Below, piece by piece: positions 11,401-57,766 of a DNA stretch of 64,000 nucleotides; position 1 is the stretch's first letter, and the number at the start of each line of letters is the position of its first letter. The notes beneath the pieces are model-generated. The model did not search any database, was not told the origin of the DNA, and worked only from the letters and a program-made list of their open reading frames with translations. The position numbers and the translations under genes are program-made. The stretch is from Octopus vulgaris (taxonomy: Eukaryota), in the NCBI GenBank assembly GCA_951406725.2, contig OX597815.1, forward strand, positions 122,946,001-123,010,000, read 5' to 3'.

Positions 11401-11616
11401 TATAAAATAAATGTATTTATATTCTCTCGTCTGCGATATTTAACTGACGTTAAACATAATTTAGTTCGCAACAACAATGGCGATAAGTGTTTTAAAATAT
11501 TGACCACAGTGTTTAACATTTATATATAAAAGAGACGTCTAAGATGAGAAAAATCGCAGATAACCGTGAGGGAATATATTTACTTCTATCAAAGGGGCAC
11601 ATTTTGTCTGGCTGTG

Positions 11617-11927
11617 ATGTTCAAAAACTTCGTGATTCCTCCACAATCGGAGAATGGAGTCCTGGAATCACCTATGGCAACAATCGAAAGTCAATCTTCA
11701 TACGAGGGTTCGACACAAACCCGATGCTTAAATGCAGAAAAGCAATTGATGGAGTTGCCTGAAGATATACTTTATCTATTGTTTCGTTACTTGGATCTTT
11801 GTTCCTTGGGACGCCTATGCCGTGTTTGTCGGAAACTGCGTCGTCTGATATATACAGATAGTGTATGGCTGCGATTCACCAGACAACAGATGGTGATTAA
11901 AGATCTGGGTCATCGGCCTAAAGGCAA
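11617..11927 (+). CDS. FBXW4: FBXW4 coding exon 1 (F-box domain)
   Basis: LMELPEDILYLLFRYLDLCSLGRLCRVCRKLRRL; phase-2 donor AA|gtacgt. The start ATG is ambiguous (11617 or 11674). Confidence 0.88.
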
Positions 11928-11982
11928 GTACGTATCTCACTTCTAATCATTCTCTAGTTTCTTTCTCTCTCACAACACACAC

Positions 11983-18800: not shown

Positions 18801-21800
18801 AATGAGGCTGCATGCCATCCCTTGACAAGAGCCTCATTGACTAAATCCTGATATTTCGATTTCTTTCCCTGGTGGGAAATACTGAGTCTATCCTCCCAGG
18901 ACATTGTGAGTTTGACCACAATGATTGTTTTTGTATTCTTGGAGAGCAAGAGCATTTCTGGTCAATTAGATATATAACTCTAATTTTTTGAGATTAAAAT
19001 ATTGTTTGCATATAAAATTCAAATGAAAGCAACATGAAAGGTTACATGAAATGAAATAAAAATTGTGACATTAATAGTTGAAATGTCTTTAGAGAATTTG
19101 TTAAAAGAATCATTATATCTATAGAATAAGAATTAAATTAGATATCCAAATTCAAAATTGTTCTTGTTCCTATGAAGTGCTTCTACCAGATATTCCTTCA
19201 TAGAAGCCCTTAAATCTGACCTGGTTATTTTCAGTGCAGAAAACATTTGAAATTTTAATGCTGTTAAAATATTAGTTTCCATTTAGTTGGTGTCCATACA
19301 TTTTTACTGACTCTAGTAATTCAGTAATTGCTTCCAACTCCAACTCCCTAACCTTGCATATACAAAATACTACAGAAAACTGGAAGAAGCGTTAGCCCTG
19401 TAGATCATTGTAATTCACAACAGATTACTCAATTTTAATCAATAGATTAATTTATGTTGAATTCTGTCTTTTGCTGGAACATTGTTGTAGTGAGGATGGA
19501 GAGTTTCATGTATGGATAACTTATAATCTTCCCCTGAGAGAAAATTGCTTTGGCTTACTTCTTAGAAGAAACTTTCGCAGGCTTAATCTATGGTTTTGAG
19601 AGATATGTAAGAATTGCTTTGCCACCACCAATTATCTAGTATAATAATTTAAGTAATTCATAATTATTTTCCTTGGAACCTATTCAAGATCAGTCATCAT
19701 TGTCTTTTAATGTCTGCTTTTCTTGCTGGCATGGGTTGGACGGTTTGACTGAGGACTGGCAAGCCAGGAGGCTGCACCACGCTCCAATCTGTTCTGGCAA
19801 GGTTTCTACAGCTGGATGCTCTTCCTAATGCCAACCACTCCAAGAGTGTAGTATGTGCTTTTTTACATGCCACAAGCACAGGGGCCAGTCAGGTGGCACT
19901 AACATTGACCGTGCTCAAATGGTGCTTTTTATGTGCCACTGGCACAGGAGCCAGTCAGGCAGCACTGGCATCAACCACTCTTGGATGGTGCTTTTTACAT
20001 GCCACTGGCACAGGAGCCAGACAGGCGGCATTGGTATTGACCACACTTGAATGGTGCTTTTTACATGCCACCAGCATGAGAGCCAGTCAGGTGACACTGG
20101 CATTGGCCTTGACAATGATTTCACTTGACTCAACAGGTCTTCTCAAGCACATCATATTGCCCAACAATTGAGGGTTACTTTTAAACAAGCCAGTTATATG
20201 ACACTGGCAAAAATGTGAAACTTGAAGTGGAATTTTCTTTTTCTTGCACTCCAAATTTCAGTCACTATTTATGGACATTAAAAGTTTTAATAGTTTTTTA
20301 AAATTACGTCCTATTTTCGACTGTAGCTATACTGGGATACCACTTTATAGAGTTTAATTGACTACAATGCTTATTCTATCAGTTTCTTTTGCTGAACTGT
20401 TAAGTTAGAGAAGCAAAAACAAATCAGTGGTTGTCAAGTGAGTCAAAGGCTGGAATAAACAGCACGTGTGCACATGCACAAACTGGACTTCTTACAGTTT
20501 TCATCCACCAATCCAACTCACAAAGCTTTGGTCAGCCCATTACTTATTTAGGAGATACTTATCCAAGATGCCATGTAATACGAAACCAAAACCATGTGGT
20601 TGTGAAACAAGCTTCTCAACCACATAGCTATGCCTGTGTGAATCAATTTGTGGGTCTATAATTTATTTATTTAAGAAACTAGAGAGCTGTTTAATATATG
20701 CTTGTTTAACATACATAATGAAAGCAATTACAGTAATTATTTCAATTATTCTATTGAGACAAGAGCATTCTTGTTAACAATTTAGTGGCAGATATTATAG
20801 GAAAGCTAATTACTATGAAACTGCTGGCAGTCCATCATAAACTTAGTTAAATTATGAAAAATCATCCAGTTCATGCCAGTATTAAAAGAAAATGAGCATG
20901 TCAAAACATTTAATTTCAATAAAATAATATTCTACCATCTAAAAAATTTTTTTCATGCATATAAATACCATTAAGTAAAATTAAAAATATAAATTATTAT
21001 AAAATTCTTGTAATGTATGTTAAGTATGTTGTTTTATCTTATATATATACTGCAAAACCTTTAAAGTTAATTGAATGTACTTTACTTTATTAATGTGGTT
21101 TTGAATGAATATTTTCATGAGATGTCATTTTGATATATCTTTCAGACAGCTTCCATGGATGCATTTTGATGACGATTATAATAAAACAATGTGGTTATCT
21201 ATTGGCTCATACATAAAGTGCTATAAAGTTCTTTCAAATGGGCTCTTTCATGAAAACTGTCAACGAATGCTTGGACCATTGCCCAGTGATGTGACTCGAT
21301 TTGTATTTAAAGATTCTGTAATTGTCACTGGATGTAGGTCAGTAGTAATTTTTATTTGTTTGCATACATATATCTGTTATCATTATATGACTATTAAAAA
21401 GGCTGTGAGCTAACAGAATCATTAGCATACTAGATGAAATGCTTAGTGGTATTTCACCTGTCGCAGCATTGTGAGTTTCAAATTCCACCAAGGTTGACTT
21501 TGCCTTTCATCCTTTCAGGGTCGATAAATTAAGTACCAGTAAAACACTGGGGTCGATGTAATTGATTATCTCCCTCCTCCAAATTTCAGGCCTTGTGCTT
21601 ATAGTAGAAAGGATTACATGCCTATTGAAACTCTCTTTTTAATCAATCACTAAAACCTCATTAATACCCATATCAGAGGTTATAAAGAAACATTAGTAAT
21701 TTTATTTCAAATCAGTGTAAATATAAGTTTCATGGAGTATTTCAGTTTAAATACTGATTCTCAGTAAGGAGTTTTTATAAATCTTTGTTCATGAAAGTCT

Positions 21801-21963
21801 TGCTCTGTGTGTGTGTGCATAGACATGGTTGTGTGGGTATGGAATTTGCTTGTCTCAGATTCTATCCCATAACATGCTTGTAAGTGGAATTGGCAGGCAA
21901 AATATACAGAAGCTCATCATAAACATTGTGTGCATAAATATATATATATATATATATATAAAT

Positions 21964-22021
<58 letters not shown>

Positions 22022-24109
22022 ATAATAAATATTAGGGAATAAATCCAAATTTACAGGAAAAAAAATCAGATTTAGGATTAAATCCAATTTTATAGTAAAA
22101 TATTATATAATATTAATTAGAGACAAAACCACTATTTTGCAAAACAAACAAGGAAAGACTTAATCAATACATAAAATTTTAATAAAAAGTAAAAAAAACC
22201 GCCACTACAATTGTTTCATGTCCTGATCGACAATCTTCAGGTGGATTTCAATCTAAAATATCAATATTTTAAAATATAAAAAATAATAATTTTAAAATAA
22301 TTAAAGTATCAATGAAAAAATATAAATATATAATCTATATATAACCTATATATAATCCATATATAATCAATATATAAACTAAAATAAACCTATCAACAAT
22401 TAAATATAAAACAAAATAAAAATAAACTATATATACACCCATACACATATAACTAATTATATATAACCATATCTAAATACATACACTAAATCACACACCT
22501 ATATATATATCCCTATACATACACATAAAAACGTCTAGGCAATGATAAATAAATAAAATAGCCAAATACTTCAACACAATACTTATTCATACTCCCTCAC
22601 ACACACATACAACCCACATTCATAAACAATATACGTATACCCGCTCACACATACATATACAAACATACAGAACTCGATATATACACCAATATATTCACAC
22701 CCACAACTATACAGATAAATAAATTATGCAAATAATTCCCCACACACACACACACACCCATTCACACATACATAAACACTCAAAAGCAAAATAAATAATT
22801 CTTTGCACTTGTTGATCGAACGTTTTTTTTTAAATTATAAATGGAATAATATATAATCAACTTAAATATACAGAATCTACTACAAAACACCAATAAACCA
22901 TCAAGATAAATGAAACCCACATACATATTATGATAAAACTCCCCCTACCATACACAATTACACCTATATAGCAATCCCATATACACATTCACACACAAAT
23001 ATACATACGTAAAACACACACACACAACATATACGTATACCCCCTCACATATACATATACATACTTACTAAACTCGACATATACAACAATATTTTCACAC
23101 CCACACTCATACAGATATGAGTGTGGGTGTGAAAATATTGTTGTATATGTCGAGTTTAGTAAGTATGTATATGTATATGTGAGGGGGTATACGTATATGT
23201 TGTGTGTGTGTGTTTTACGTATGTATATTTGTGTGTGAATGTGTATATGGGATTGCTATATAGGTGTAATTGTGTATGGTAGGGGGAGTTTTATCATAAT
23301 ATGTATGTGGGTTTCATTTATCTTGATGGTTTATTGGTGTTTTGTAGTAGATTCTGTATATTTAAGTTGATTATATATTATTCCATTTATAATTTAAAAA
23401 AAAAACATTCGATCAACAAGTGCAAAGAATTATTTATTTTGCTTTTGAGTGTTTATGTATGTGTGAATGGGTGTGTGTGTGGGGGGGGGATTATTTGCGT
23501 AATTTATTTATCTGTATAGTTGTGGGTGTGAATATATTGGTGTATATATCGAGTTCTGTATGTTTGTATATGTATGTGTGAGCGGGTATATGTATATTGC
23601 TTATGAATGTGGGTTGTATGTGTGTGTGAGGGAGTATGAATAAGTATTGTGTTGAAGTATTTGGCTATTTTATTTATTTATCGTTGCCTAGACGTTTTTA
23701 TGTGTATGTATAGGGATATATATATAGGTGTGTGATTTAGTGTATGTATTTAGATATGGTTATATATAATTAGTTATATGTGTATGGGTGTATATTTAGT
23801 TTATTTTTATTTTGTTTTATATTTAATTGTTGATAGGTTTATTTTAGTTTATATATTGATTATATATGGATTATATATAGGTTATATATAGATTATATAT
23901 TTATATTTTTTCATTGATACTTTAATTATTTTAAAATTATTATTTTTTATATTTTAAAATATTGATATTTTAGATTGGAAATCCACCTGAAGATTGTCGA
24001 TCAGGACATGAAACAATTGTAGTGGCGGTTTTTTAACTTTTTATTAAAATTTTATGTATTGATTAAGTCTTTCCTTGTTTGTTTTGCAAAATAGTGGTTT
24101 TGTCTCTAA

Positions 24110-24143
<34 letters not shown>

Positions 24144-24696
24144 TTAAGTAGTTGAATGAATTATCCTAGTATGGATAATTCGGTTAACCGATACCTGGGT
24201 AGCAAATTCATGTCAGAAAAACACGGTTGAAGCTACATGCCAAGGGCAGAGATCACGTGCTTTCGTGTGTAAATTTGCGGGTTTTTTTTTCATACAAATA
24301 AATGAAAGAATGGAGTTGAACAACGATTTAACAAAATTCCTTTATTCTCCACATATGTTTCGAAGACTGCATATTCCTAATTTGGAAGGAATAAGGGGTG
24401 CATTATGCCGCCTTCTCATCAGGAAAGACAAGGAACTTATGTCAGCATCATGATGAACAAAAACTTTTAGATGACTGCCCATTCGGAGTCCATATGGCTA
24501 TGGACTCCGTATGGGCAGTCATCTAAAAGTTTTTGTTCATCATGATGCTGACATAAGTTCCTTGTCTTTCCTGATGAGAAGGCGGCATAATGCACCCCTT
24601 ATTCCTTCGAAATTAGGAATATGCAGTCTTCGAAACATATGTCGAGAATAAAGGAATTTTGTTAAATCGTCGTTCAACTCCATTCTTTCATTTATT

Positions 24697-24728
<32 letters not shown>

Positions 24729-24976
24729 CATATGTGTGTATTATGTATGTTATCATCATCATCATCGTTTAACATCCATTGTCCATGCTGGCATGGGTTG
24801 GACAGTTTGACTGAAAACTGGTAAACAGGAGAGCTGCTCTAGGTTCCAATCAGATTCTGCCTCCACGAGGCCCATCGTTTGAAGCTCATGCTTCACCATC
24901 ACATCCCATGTCTTCCTGAGTCTGCTTCCTCCACAGGTTCCTGCCTCTGTTAAAGTTCAGCACATCTTCACACAGC

Positions 24977-25007
<31 letters not shown>

Positions 25008-28000
25008 GGGATCTTCTATCAACATTGGTCATAATTTGTTAGATTTCATTTGTAAATTTAAAAATGGTAAATTATTTCATGGTTATAAATGCTTTGGAAG
25101 ATAGTGTAGCCAGGTCTTTGACATTGAGTAAATTATTGGTAACTGTTGTATTGACCATTGAGTGCTAAAGACTAAAATTTATTTAACAGATGTCAGGCCC
25201 TTCTCCTATGAGCCTTTCTCTGTAAAAGATGACTGTGTGTGTATGTATGTTCAGTCATGGGCTAGATTTTTTGTGGAAGATTGACAGCTGTCTGTGCAAT
25301 CAAGTCTCACTTCTCCACATCACTGATGTTCATCCAGAAGAGAGGCCAGCAACTTATGCTGATACAATTTAGCATCACTGATGTCACAGGCATTTCTCTC
25401 AGAATGCAAAATGCCTGAACAGATACTACAAAAGGTATTTCCTTAACCTTCAGATAGATATAAGATTAAAGTAGAAACAAAGTTGTTTTGCTTCATTCTA
25501 TGAAGTAACAAATGATAATTATTTTAACTATGTTATTTCTTTTCCTTTCCTGTCTTTTAAATTGTCCTTAACTGCTTTTTGTCTTATATTTTGCATTAAA
25601 CTCCATTCCACTAAAATATTGATTTTTTTATTAAATTAATTTTGGACATCAAGTACATTTTAGAATATCTATTTTCAGAAATGTTTATTTTTTCTTTACA
25701 CTTGGGATATAAAATTAGAAAAGAAAATGTTTTTATTCAAATGTGAACATGATCTTGTAACACTGTATTTTCTGTAATAGTAATTTTAAAATGTTTAACT
25801 TTCATCTTTCAGAGAAGGGAGCGTGGTGGCTTGGGATTGCAACACACAAGAGAAGCTGTTCCACTGTGCAAATGTCCACAAAGAAGATTCTCAATGCGTG
25901 GATTTTCATGGTGACATCATTGTTTCAGGTTCTCGTGATGCAACTATCAAGGTAAAAATTATCATAATTTCAGATTCTTCTGTAGTTGGTTTATTCTCAA
26001 GCCTAACAAGCTAGAAATGTACCTCTATGTGGCAGGAATTGACTATAGAAAAATATATTACCCAACATTATATGCATACTAGCAGGATACAGTGCATGAG
26101 GTTGAGTGAGGGAAAGATGTTGAGATAGGGGCAGGAATTTTGAGAAACTGTCTTTGTAATTTTGTTGTAATAGAAATTATTCATTCTAAAACTATTTTTA
26201 ATGTAAAAATAATAACCAATAGTTGTTTCAAAATATGTTTTAAGCTATAATTACATTAATATCATCATTATCATATGCATAATATTATGTAAAAATGAAG
26301 CAAAGATTTGATATTGGTTCAAGATTATTTGGGCATTAATTTTCTCAGCTAGTCTGCATTAGATGAATCTAATAATTCATTTCTGTACCATAATCTTGTC
26401 TCATCTCATTTGTGAGGTCCTGTATTCTTAGCACTAAAGTCCCAATCAAGTACTTATATTGGTTCTTTTCCCCATCTCTATGGAAGAAAACAAATGTGTT
26501 TAGACTTGAGAGAGAGTTGGGTTCCACCAAATTTTATAAATGTTCAAAATGTACCATATGTTACAATGATGCCCCTACAACTCCATCAAAACTTGAGGGC
26601 TTCACCAACTCTACCGCCACTGATTTTACATAACAATAGACAATATTGGTTCCTCTAAATAAAACTGAACTTATTGTTGATTTTATGCATTCGTTGCCAG
26701 ATTTCATTTCAATACAGCACCACACTGCTGTATGTATATATATATACACACACACACACCATGGCCAACAAAAGAGCCTTGGCATTGTCACTTCACCTGT
26801 TAGAAGTAGCAAATTCAGTATTTGTACTGAATGCCATAGAGCAGTTGTCCAAACCTTTTAAAATGAAAGATCCAGCTTGTAGAGCTGGATTTGTAGCAAG
26901 GCTGAATAATGGTCAAGTTCTGTAAAACAACTGGAAGTTTGAGAGAAATCTATCACATGCCTTTAATTACTAGAATTACCTGTAAGACCAAAATCTGCAA
27001 CCACCAAAGGGAATAACTTGGTTCTAATATATCTCCTGTTAAAAGTTTTAATATTTTAAAATTTATATAATCTTTATCTTTCATGCTGTATTGATGTTTC
27101 CTGTTTGGAGTTAGATTTTTAAAATGTTTAGCATAGAACTCATCATTATCACCATCATTGTCATTATTGATGATGAGTTCTATGCTAAACATTTAAAAAA
27201 TCTAACTCCAAACTGCAAACATCAATACAGCGCGAAAGATAAAGATTATATAATTCCAGAAATATTAAAACTTTTAACAGAAGATATATTAGAACCAAGT
27301 TATTCCCTTTGGTGGTTGCAGATTTTGATCTTACAGGTAGTTCTAGTAATTAAAAGCTAGTGATAGATTTCTAGAACTTGTGTCAATAGTTGATAATTTC
27401 ATTTATGTCATCCAATTTTTTTTATGGCTTGAAAGTCTTAAACCTTTAAGAGAGTTCAAATGAAATCAATGTTATTTTAATTTTATAATATACTTATCAG
27501 TTTAATAATATACCATTTACCAGCAGTTACATGTTCATGTCAGCATTAGCAACCACTTATACGTTTGTTTTATATTCCAGATTTTAAACATGCAAGAGAA
27601 AGACAGCAAGAGACAAGTTCGAGCAACACTTCATTCTGAAGATCGTCTATGGTCTGTGGCAATGAATCCAGATGGAACGTAAGCATGTAACTCTTTGAAC
27701 TTTTTTATTTTAGTTTTGTATGAGGAGAAAGAGTATTGGCCATATGTTGTAGGCATGATTTGCTTATGTTAGCAGTGAACAGAGCATAACAATTCAAAAC
27801 AAAAGATATTGGAGATTTTTATTCTTGATATAAATTAAAGACTTCTATGTTTCACTTAACAGATGTCAGGCCCTTCTCCTATGAGCCTTCATCTGTAAAA
27901 GATGACTGTGTGTAGTAATTTGATAGTGTTTCAAAAAAATATTTTGTTGATGATGTACTTACTGATTTCTTTCTAATTGATGATTTATCCAGGTCTTTTA

Positions 28001-36512: not shown

Positions 36513-37801
36513 CGAGGGACGTTCAATAAGTAATACCTCTGACCCACTTGCAGTTGTTTGATCTAGCTGAAATTTTGCATGTGCAATCATTTATATCTCT
36601 ATAGAGTAAGTGGCAAATTACAGCTCTGAATTAATTGTGGTTTCTGATTTACAGGTGTTTGAACCGAGTCAAGTGTGAAATGGAGCCTGTTGAGTGTCGA
36701 GCAGTGATCCACTTTTTGTATTTGAAAGGACGCACACCACGGGAGACTTTTGATGAAATGAAAGTAACTTATGGTGATGATGCCCCATCATATGACCTTG
36801 TAAAACGCTGGCATCGTGAATTCAAACATGGTCGGAACTCTGTGGAAACAGCTCCCAGATCTGGTCGCCCCCTTCTGCCATTGATGAGGCATCTGTCCGT
36901 CAAGTTGAGGCTGCCATTTTTGAAGATCGACGCATAATTATTCGCCAAATAGCCCATGAGGTCAAGATTAGTACCGGGTCTGTGGAAACTATCATTCATG
37001 ACCATTTGCATATGCAAAAGGTGTCTGCCAGATGGATTCCCAGGTTGCTCACGCTTTTCCAGAAGCAAGAACGCGTCGAGTGCTCGAGGGTGAATTTGGA
37101 GATGTGCCAAGAAGATGAGTCAAAATTTTTCAAAAGACTGATTACACAGGATGAAACCTGGGTCCATCACGACGATCCAGAGACCAAAGCCCAGTCAATG
37201 CAGTGGAAGCACCGTGACTCACCCCCTCCAAAGAAGGCAAGGGTGCAGCCCTCCGCTGGCAAGGTCATGCTCACAGTCTTCTGGGACCAGGACGGAGTAG
37301 TGATGACAGATTTCCTGGCAAAGGGTACCACAATTGCAGGAGCCTATTATGCTTCACTTTTGAGGAAATTAAGAGAAGTTATCAAAATCAAGAGGCAGGG
37401 CAAGATCAGCAAAGGCATCCTCCTCCTGCAGGACAACGCTCCGGTCCACAACTCGCTTGTCGCCAGATCAGAAGCACAGGCGTATGGCTATGAACTCCTC
37501 CCCCTCCCCCTACTTTCCTGACCTTGCACCTCTGATTTTCACCTCTTCCCAATCATGAAGTTGTTTTTGAAAGGAAAGCGTTTCCCAGATGATGCAGCCT
37601 TGATTTCTGAAGTCACGTTGAGGTTGGAGGACCAAGCTGGGTTCTTCTACAAAAACGGTCTCCAGAGCCGCATCAAACGATGGGAGAAATGCGTAACTCT
37701 GGGTGGTTCCTATGTAGAAAAAGACTAATAACTGTGCCAAGTTTCGTTGCTCTACTGCTATGGGAAGTGGGTCAGGGGCATTACTTATTGAACGCCCCTT
37801 G
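36513..37801 (+). mobile_element. Full-length mariner (DD34D) transposon, 1289 bp
   Basis: 37-bp TIRs (cgagggacgttcaataagtaatacctctgacccactt, 4 mismatches) and a TA target duplication on both sides. Confidence 0.95.
36680..37728 (+). pseudogene. Frameshifted mariner transposase
   Basis: MEPVECRAVIHFLYLKG..., ARWIPRLLT, ITQDETWV, LLQDNAPVH, PDLAP/DFHLF, RWEKCVTLGGSYVEKD then stop. Frameshifts near 36870 and 37500-37535. Confidence 0.92.
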
Positions 37802-46075: not shown

Positions 46076-47239
<1,164 letters not shown>

Positions 47240-56490: not shown

Positions 56491-56984
56491 CTCTACAGAA
56501 CAGAAGATAGCGCTCTTCCTTTCAGTAATTTCTATTTTACCAATTCTCTTTACGCTGCAGTCAACATAATTTGTGATGAATACGTATTGTAACTGTATTC
56601 TCATTCATTCCCTTACATTTTTCTTTTCAAATGATCTTACATAAACATACTGTGCTTAGATATTTTAATATCGTAGAATTCATTCGGATGAACAGGTACA
56701 TTAAATTGAAAAGATAAATAAAAAACCAACAAAAACTCCTGATTCAGCGTGTATAGACAAAGTGAAGAAGAAATAGATCATATCTTTTAATAGATGAATT
56801 CATGCACAGAAGATGTATTCTTTTTCCGAATGAATTCTGTCAGAATGCATCTCAGTTTGTAATATGGAAATCAATGAGAAAATAGGTTTCGCATTACAGA
56901 ATTCCGCATAGCGACAATATTTAAAAGAATACAGGATACTGTAACTCGGGAGATGCCAGAATTTTAGATATTTGTAATACTTAC

Positions 56985-57204
56985 CGACAACAGTTGGTTC
57001 CAGATCAACAAAGACCGCTCTGGGGACATGCTTCCCAGCTCCAGTTTCACTGAAGAAAGTACTAAACGAATCATCTCTCCTCGATTTCTTATCTGAAGGT
57101 ACTTGACCATCAGGTTGAATTTTGTGTTCAAGACAGTAGAGTTCCCAACAGGCATTGCCAATTTGTACACCTGCTTGTCCAACGTGGATACTGATACATT
57201 CCCT
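56985..57204 (-). CDS. TUBA: Alpha-tubulin, coding exon 2 (ATG-only first exon not located); about 450 aa in total
   Basis: tttcag|AGG acceptor and G|gtaagt phase-1 donor matching the next exon; [73 protein letters not shown]. Confidence 0.96.
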
Positions 57205-57766
57205 CTGAAAGAAATAAAGGAATACATGATTATAATTATGATGTACCTTTAATTTCTACGAGCTGCGCCCAAGTCTCAACCGGAGACATCAAGGGAGAAA
57301 AGTTTTTACATCTAAAGATACAAACAGTTGAGGTGTCATACAATTGAAAAACTGATGTTTGTGTTTATAAAAACATTATTCGTTTGTTATCAAATTTATA
57401 ATAAAACTGAATGAATAAGATCGTATTAAACTAGAGTCGATTCGATCAACCAAACTCCTTTACATGTAAGTGATCATGTGTCACCACAAGAAATAATTCA
57501 ACAACAATATTATAGTTTACCATGCCAGAAAATTCTTTAAAAATAAAAATACTAATGTCTTTTCCTTGGTCTCAGAATTTCTGATGAAATTGTAAGAGTA
57601 CTGTCTTGGACAGTTGTAGACCGAGCGGTGCCTTTCCATCTCCAAGTCTGACCACAGAAGATCTCTTGCTAGAAATGAGAAACAGACAGAAAGAAGTAGG
57701 AGAATCGATCCTAGTAGAGGACTGGTACTTTATTTATCGATCATGACAAGCAAAGTTGACCTCAAG

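Follow-up and report, generated by a model that had tools for sequence, protein, structure and literature searches.

Two palindromic Penelope-like insertions with hammerhead motifs in an intronic (TA)n tract of Octopus vulgaris

Results

Structure of the intronic cassette

The window analysed here, a stretch of 64,000 nt from contig OX597815.1 of the Octopus vulgaris genome, contains on its plus strand a host gene with an F-box exon at 11548–11943 (Pfam E 3.6e-11) and weak WD40 matches. By its likeness to the human gene, it is presumably FBXW4, with the cassette in what would be intron 3, which are the gene and intron named in the original prediction. An atlas search with the host exon returned generic WD40 look-alikes, with recognition below threshold and no gene name. 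The exon upstream of the cassette (21146–21337) is contained in RNA-like contigs of 957–2931 nt from four out of four runs, the RNA nature of these runs being a guess, and both this exon and the WD40 exon at 25813–25951 have AG/GT ends on the plus strand. Elsewhere in the window, minus-strand exons at 46076–47239 and 56800–57255 presumably belong to an alpha-tubulin gene, and a plus-strand remnant in two frames at 36635–37521 presumably derives from a mariner-like transposase. The cassette and its surroundings comprise the following features:

21146–21337, plus strand: exon of the F-box/WD40 host gene upstream of the cassette (RNA-like contigs, AG/GT ends)
21934–22019: left-hand flanking microsatellite of (TA)n/(CA)n, remnant of the target (repeat runs)
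22020–22103, minus strand: 3' tail of family A, about 85 nt, on this arm only (family ends)
22104–23117, minus strand: primary copy of family A, 5'-truncated 3' UTR/pLTR of a Hydra-type Penelope-like element (family alignment)
22202–22244, minus strand: hammerhead A (descriptor)
23116–24115, plus strand: inverted, tail-less copy of family A, merging into (TA)n (family alignment)
23983–24025, plus strand: hammerhead A in host sense, predicted cut after 24021 (descriptor)
24113–24143: (TA)16 separating both insertions (repeat runs)
24143–24290, minus strand: 3' tail of family B, about 147 nt, on this arm only (family ends)
24291–24494, minus strand: primary copy of family B, 5'-truncated pLTR, starting about 500 nt past the family frame stop
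24346–24426, minus strand: hammerhead B (descriptor), G at position 17, predicted non-cleavable
24499–24702, plus strand: inverted, tail-less copy of family B (family alignment)
24567–24647, plus strand: hammerhead B in host sense, predicted cut after 24643 (descriptor, sister-family comparison)
24693–24733: (TA)n, right flank (repeat runs)
25813–25951, plus strand: following exon of the host gene with a WD40 repeat, probable boundaries set by AG/GT

Alignment of the arms confirmed the predicted arrangement of two adjacent palindromes, each with a centre of 4 nt; (TA)n separates them from each other and bounds them on either side. The arms of palindrome A (22104–23111 and 23116–24122, approximately 1,008 nt) are 98% identical, with nine substitutions and five gap columns, and flank a centre at 23112–23115, while those of palindrome B (24291–24494 and 24499–24702, 204 nt) are 97% identical with six substitutions around a centre at 24495–24498. 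The two palindromes are indeed unrelated in nucleotide sequence, their best match being 10 nt long (E 0.57). Comparison with five family copies identified centre A as family sequence of the minus-strand copy, followed by a 2-nt microhomology at 23116–23117; in centre B, two bases match a family variant upstream of the plus arm and two do not. The left arms are extended by the family tails at 22020–22103 and 24143–24290, which the original prediction had missed. Both tail-bearing copies thus lie on the minus strand, and the host-sense ribozymes are part of the secondary, inverted copies. Small hairpins and a short internal repeat are found near the far ends of the tails (22020–22103; 24160–24190).

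A third, older palindrome of 433 nt (26944–27372, 89% identity) is located in the next intron; it contains no hammerhead motif, and a genome search with it yielded no second full copy.

Hammerhead motifs

Four type I hammerheads had been predicted, and our own descriptor found exactly these four in the 64 kb; in 100 second-order Markov copies of the window, it produced on average 0.14 loose and 0.01 strict matches. The CUGANGA and GAAA core, stems I and II and an NUH triplet are present in three of the four motifs, the minus-strand B motif having GUG instead. The minus-strand A motif consists of a 4-bp stem I, CUGAAGA, a 4-bp stem II resting on a U.U pair, a palindromic loop III and GUA, whereas the host-sense B motif has a 4-bp stem I, CUGAUGA, a long branched stem II, a palindromic loop III and GUC. 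The predicted cut positions proposed earlier, after 24021 (GUA) and 24643 (GUC), are correctly placed. The G17 of the minus-strand B motif is a private change, present in three exact genome copies compared to 485 with C, and these counts rule out that G17 is the norm of family B.

Loop III of the motifs consists of 8-nt self-complementary segments, and one sister family retains the palindrome despite a double change. Covariation among copies, on which the original prediction had made its ribozymes depend, is present in family B and its sister families, where 6 of 18 pairs show a two-sided change and 94% of the cells are paired among ten related sequences that represent few independent events; equally high values were obtained in 2 of 500 shuffles. 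In family A, a swapped pair occurs in a single divergent copy (L092). The preserved fold in the B lineage points to a role of the ribozyme for the element and not for the host.

At the base of stem II in hammerhead A, exact copy counts were 27 for the U.U form of the window and 206 for U-A, with predicted fold probabilities of 0.002 and 0.41, respectively. That the U.U pair cripples hammerhead A was dropped as a firm claim, the form being common in described Hydra hammerheads (Penelope-1, -2, -3, -4, -5, -6, -8_HM and others). An Rfam scan of 21000–26000 gave no hammerhead family among 29 matches at E ≤ 10; the matches were to miRNA-like and two other sRNA families, all hairpin-like and none reaching the gathering score. 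In host sense, the B motif is intact, and a pair probability of 0.6–0.7 is predicted for its stem II, so that some cleavage by this motif would be possible if the antisense arm were absent.

Two families of Penelope-like elements

The original prediction had compared the hammerheads with those of Penelope-like elements (PLEs) and retrozymes, for which minimal motifs with a palindromic loop III are known, and had proposed to search the arms genome-wide for links to RT and GIY-YIG frames. In a first look at the 2.8-Gb genome, approximately 1,687 and 2,025 candidates were found for the ends of families A and B, and the top copies among the 40 candidates scored per end were 95–99% identical. Over 1.1 kb, the A arm of the window is 97% identical to L061 and L064, and it is 93–95% identical to the ends of the frame-bearing loci L065 and L090. 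The B arm is 90–95% identical to five other copies and 93–95% identical to L063, L075, L076 and L095. The solo B copies L075 and L076 (about 350 nt) start within about 10 nt of the truncation point in the window, hinting at a preferred 5' stop.

Longer fetches yielded frame-bearing loci for both families (L065 and L080 for A; L063 and L073 for B), with RT and GIY-YIG frames upstream of the respective ends. Searches of the genome with RT pieces gave 152 (A) and 150 (B) scored matches, many of them in uninterrupted frames of 800–900 aa. Family A ends 3.5–4.5 kb past uninterrupted RT and GIY-YIG frames of 820–860 aa, and 11 of the 12 A loci fetched by their RT have a match to the family end, which is strong and located downstream in sense in 10 of them; the exceptions are L089 without an end match and L092 with a weak match on the opposite strand. 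Family B ends about 500 nt past the frame stop in L063, L093 and L095. The linkage of RT and GIY-YIG in a single frame is therefore present in other copies of both families and absent at this locus, and it supports the assignment of the motifs to Penelope-type hammerheads. In agreement with the original prediction, tblastn with three parent frames detected no RT or GIY-YIG coding sequence in the window.

The two families are 45% identical over the RT, and with many uninterrupted frames both are young and abundant. Pfam analysis of six parent frames detected no RT family and GIY-YIG only below threshold (E 0.074), and a protein search with the A RT region gave 18 matches, of which the one named match was an uncharacterized protein from Octopus bimaculoides, with no clade label. 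Partial tandem (direct) pLTRs are present at L081, L082, L084–L086, L090 and L094, and inverted copies occur in 29 pairs. Both families contain long Asn-rich stretches between RT and endonuclease (L081, L093, L094).

Head-to-head order and the one-tail rule

The ends of both families occur in a short and a long form. The long form has an additional tail, about 85 nt long in family A and 147 nt in family B, which was present after the common end at 32 of the 56 A ends and 25 of the 54 B ends examined. Our locus set comprised 38 A and 36 B loci, including the window and with duplicates dropped; as the loci were picked as best matches, the pair frequencies are not genome-wide rates. Head-to-head pairs were found in 12 A and 17 B cases, and exactly one tail was present in 12 and 16 of them, respectively. 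Among 14 further short pairs, 12 were one-tailed and 2 tail-less. Overall, 40 of 43 pairs have one tail, three have none and not a single pair has two (P 1.5e-9 against a coin toss of 0.5). The lack of two-tail pairs rejects an independent choice of start sites at the two arms, and the one-tail rule thereby constrains how inverted PLE insertions are made.

Neighbouring copies within 10 kb were predominantly arranged in the same orientation: 24 head-to-head, one tandem and no tail-to-tail for the first 100 of 206 exact A matches, and 14 head-to-head, one tandem and no tail-to-tail for the first 100 of 485 exact B matches. A head-to-head palindrome reads antisense-first on either strand. The antisense copy preceding each sense ribozyme, rightly noted in the original prediction, is therefore an automatic consequence of a family-wide geometry, and this order needs no selection by the host. 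The span between the ends varies by locus from about 140 nt to more than 8 kb, as do arm lengths and centres, and the whole span was palindromic to at least 95% in 10 of the 14 short pairs, a sample biased by having been chosen for short span.

These data also bear on two other explanations of the palindromes. The original prediction had described the elements as non-autonomous, and they might be non-autonomous retrozymes or a foldback/MITE-type unit with true terminal inverted repeats. Short copies are numerous, the window contains no coding sequence of the elements and retrozymes are described as derived from PLE ends (Li et al., 2026; bioRxiv 10.64898/2026.07.22.740005). However, the locus lacks tandem monomers, the variable arm lengths and centres and the one-sided tail, which makes the ends asymmetric, do not fit a fixed unit, and the same ends occur downstream of RT frames. 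We therefore regard this explanation as very unlikely: no coding frame is present here, but the copies form no separate non-autonomous family or retrozyme, since other copies carry RT and GIY-YIG.

Alternatively, the palindromes could be chimeras formed by fold-back during assembly or library preparation. When contigs from four other runs, of DNA type, were compared with 23080–24530, whole-family fragments but none spanning either centre were found, although such contigs break in repeats. The arms differ by nine (A) and six (B) substitutions, the short arm ends at the fixed end of the family and continues into a separate (TA)n tract, 40 of 43 pairs obey the one-tail rule and the same structure has been described in other animals (Craig et al., 2021; Arkhipova et al., 2013). 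A chimera is thus unlikely, in our view to the point of being hardly credible.

Clade motifs and target sequences

Motifs of the Hydra clade, read by eye, include SDKT in both families and an N-terminal motif of the RWK type, which is KWK in family A and RWL in family B. Both families have CxxC and CxH beside conserved E and N, and neither has CCHH. From these motifs, both families likely belong to the Hydra clade. A CxCx5C (CxCx5Cx5C) linker precedes GIY-YIG in 12 of 12 long A frames, but is absent from nine of nine B frames and six of six sister frames (two B frames being too short upstream to judge). The absence of the linker would make family B a Hydra-like variant without a Cys linker.

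Of the ends examined, 48 of 56 in family A and 49 of 54 in family B have a TA run of at least 10 nt no more than 45 nt away, compared to a background of 5% and 2%, demonstrating that both families target (TA)n. All seven terminal ends of sister families that we viewed abut (TA)n. The linker-less lineage comprises family B and its sister families at L063, L093–L100 and L104–L109, with many identical uninterrupted frames of 899 aa.

Discussion

With high confidence, we interpret the cassette as two separate 5'-truncated insertions of two PLE families, likely of the Hydra clade, into one intronic (TA)n tract, each consisting of a tail-bearing and a tail-less inverted copy, with the hammerheads being the ordinary ribozymes of the end repeats and likely inert passengers of the host pre-mRNA. 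The pairing of each ribozyme with an antisense copy would then probably be a side effect of insertion rather than a switch for the host gene. The locus as such is ordinary, consisting of two transposon stubs of known shape, and the families are of modest use to PLE specialists.

The insertions could have arisen when the element protein nicked (TA)n and reverse transcription started at the far site, which would account for the tail. If the cDNA stopped early, it could have folded back via the 2-nt microhomology and been copied, and the fold-back copy may then have been resolved at the fixed short end of the family. Near-equal truncation points and whole-span palindromes of at least 95% favour such a fold-back over two independent starts. 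We give the fold-back route somewhat better than an even chance, consider coupled priming at two start sites rather unlikely and leave a still smaller probability to other routes. Once transcribed with the host gene, the arms would pair into a long dsRNA incompatible with the ribozyme fold, again as a by-product.

It is described as standard for PLEs to leave inverted copies truncated at the 5' end, to carry a tail on one side and to insert into microsatellites (Craig et al., 2021, PMC8557442; Arkhipova et al., 2013, PMC3846280). For the Hydra element Penelope-13_HM, an inverted 5'-truncated copy and a hammerhead on both strands are listed (PMC8557442), and dual hammerheads on opposite strands, 100–700 bp apart, were noted in 2014 (PMC4209133). 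The described PLEs of the Hydra clade, including Hydra-1_Obim and Penelope-13_HM, share with our families the C-terminal GIY-YIG, DKT, the lack of CCHH, CxxC and CxH around E and N, (TA)n targets and a 3' hammerhead with palindromic loop III (Craig et al., 2021, PMC8557442). In contrast to these elements, mostly described as shorter than 3 kb, the elements analysed here are longer, with a family A 3' UTR of 3.5–4.5 kb containing internal repeats; they carry Asn-rich inserts in their frames, their tails measure about 85 and 147 nt compared to the 30–40 nt described, and family B has a long branched stem II and no CxCX5C linker.

In Penelope of Adineta vaga, similar head-to-head inverted pLTRs with an optional one-sided tail were described, junction palindromes were read as self-priming and Asn-rich inserts separate RT and EN (Arkhipova et al., 2013, PMC3846280). 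That element belongs to another clade and host, and its target-site duplications are visible, whereas here they would be hidden by (TA)n. The Anolis Poseidon element PAc cuts and extends both strands, and its two start sites bound the tail (Frangieh et al., 2024, PMC11167929). It resembles our families in having two fixed 3' ends separated by the tail, an AT-rich target and a pLTR hammerhead, but it belongs to the Poseidon clade, its hammerhead overlaps the frame start and its activity was measured.

Animal non-LTR retrozymes were reportedly treated by Cervera and de la Pena in 2020. As described more recently, they share with the cassette the type I hammerhead, the lack of coding sequence at the locus and an origin from PLEs (Li et al., 2026, bioRxiv 10.64898/2026.07.22.740005). 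They differ in being tandem monomers of a non-coding unit, whereas the stubs found here derive from coding elements and are arranged in inverted order.

The original prediction had further proposed that the upstream antisense arm could neutralise self-cleavage of the host transcript. In a selected form of this idea, the arm would have been kept to stop the host pre-mRNA from being cut, and editing or unwinding would release the ribozyme. For naked RNA, masking is thermodynamically sound: the local duplexes have predicted energies of –103 and –173 kcal/mol, and forcing the hammerhead fold within palindrome B is predicted to cost about 121 kcal/mol. Both host-sense motifs retain a cleavable triplet and the sole change at a cut site is on the non-transcribed strand. 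Retrozymes are described as depleted from introns in Xenopus (bioRxiv 10.64898/2026.07.22.740005), and fast ribozymes such as HDV can abort splicing, as reported second-hand in PMC2995048. According to the same source, likewise second-hand, splicing can proceed when an intronic hammerhead is slow. A single base change confined to one of the strands constitutes no selection signal, and as a function masking is unsupported, the antisense-first order being forced by geometry on both strands and throughout the families.

Moreover, there may be little cleavage to be masked. Stem III is predicted to be unfavourable in the monomer (+2.4 kcal/mol), and the A–B heterodimer would be weak (–1.2 kcal/mol) compared to the homodimers (–6.4 and –7.0 kcal/mol). 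PLE hammerheads are reported to depend on dimer formation or on the protein of the element: single PLE motifs from Schistosoma are described as showing no cleavage (PMC4209133), and the Anolis PLE hammerhead as cleaving only together with protein and being dispensable for insertion (PMC11167929). As the locus offers a single sense motif of each family and no element protein, cleavage would probably be negligible. A mask retained by selection is thus quite improbable.

Among the papers listed by one narrow literature search, none dealt with antisense masking of intronic hammerheads. A broader version of the idea, which we still consider improbable, would be that fold-back provides every copy with a strand-independent antisense mask, that introns tolerate the palindromic form and that thousands of dsRNA stems represent ribozymes kept closed by their structure until RNA editing, which is heavy in this animal group, opens them. 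Should intronic copies be enriched for the palindromic form, an element with a ribozyme would be seen to protect its host in a novel manner.

A more general question is whether (TA)n targeting requires the Cys linker, for which the lineage of family B offers a natural test. We rate the chances as even that this lineage targets (TA)n without the Cys linker that was proposed as mediator. It would then be a counter-example to linker-mediated targeting, unless its members were moved in trans by a linker-bearing family. Among the fetched loci, families A and B were also found side by side at L049, L087 and L096, which suggests that a given (TA)n tract is used more than once.
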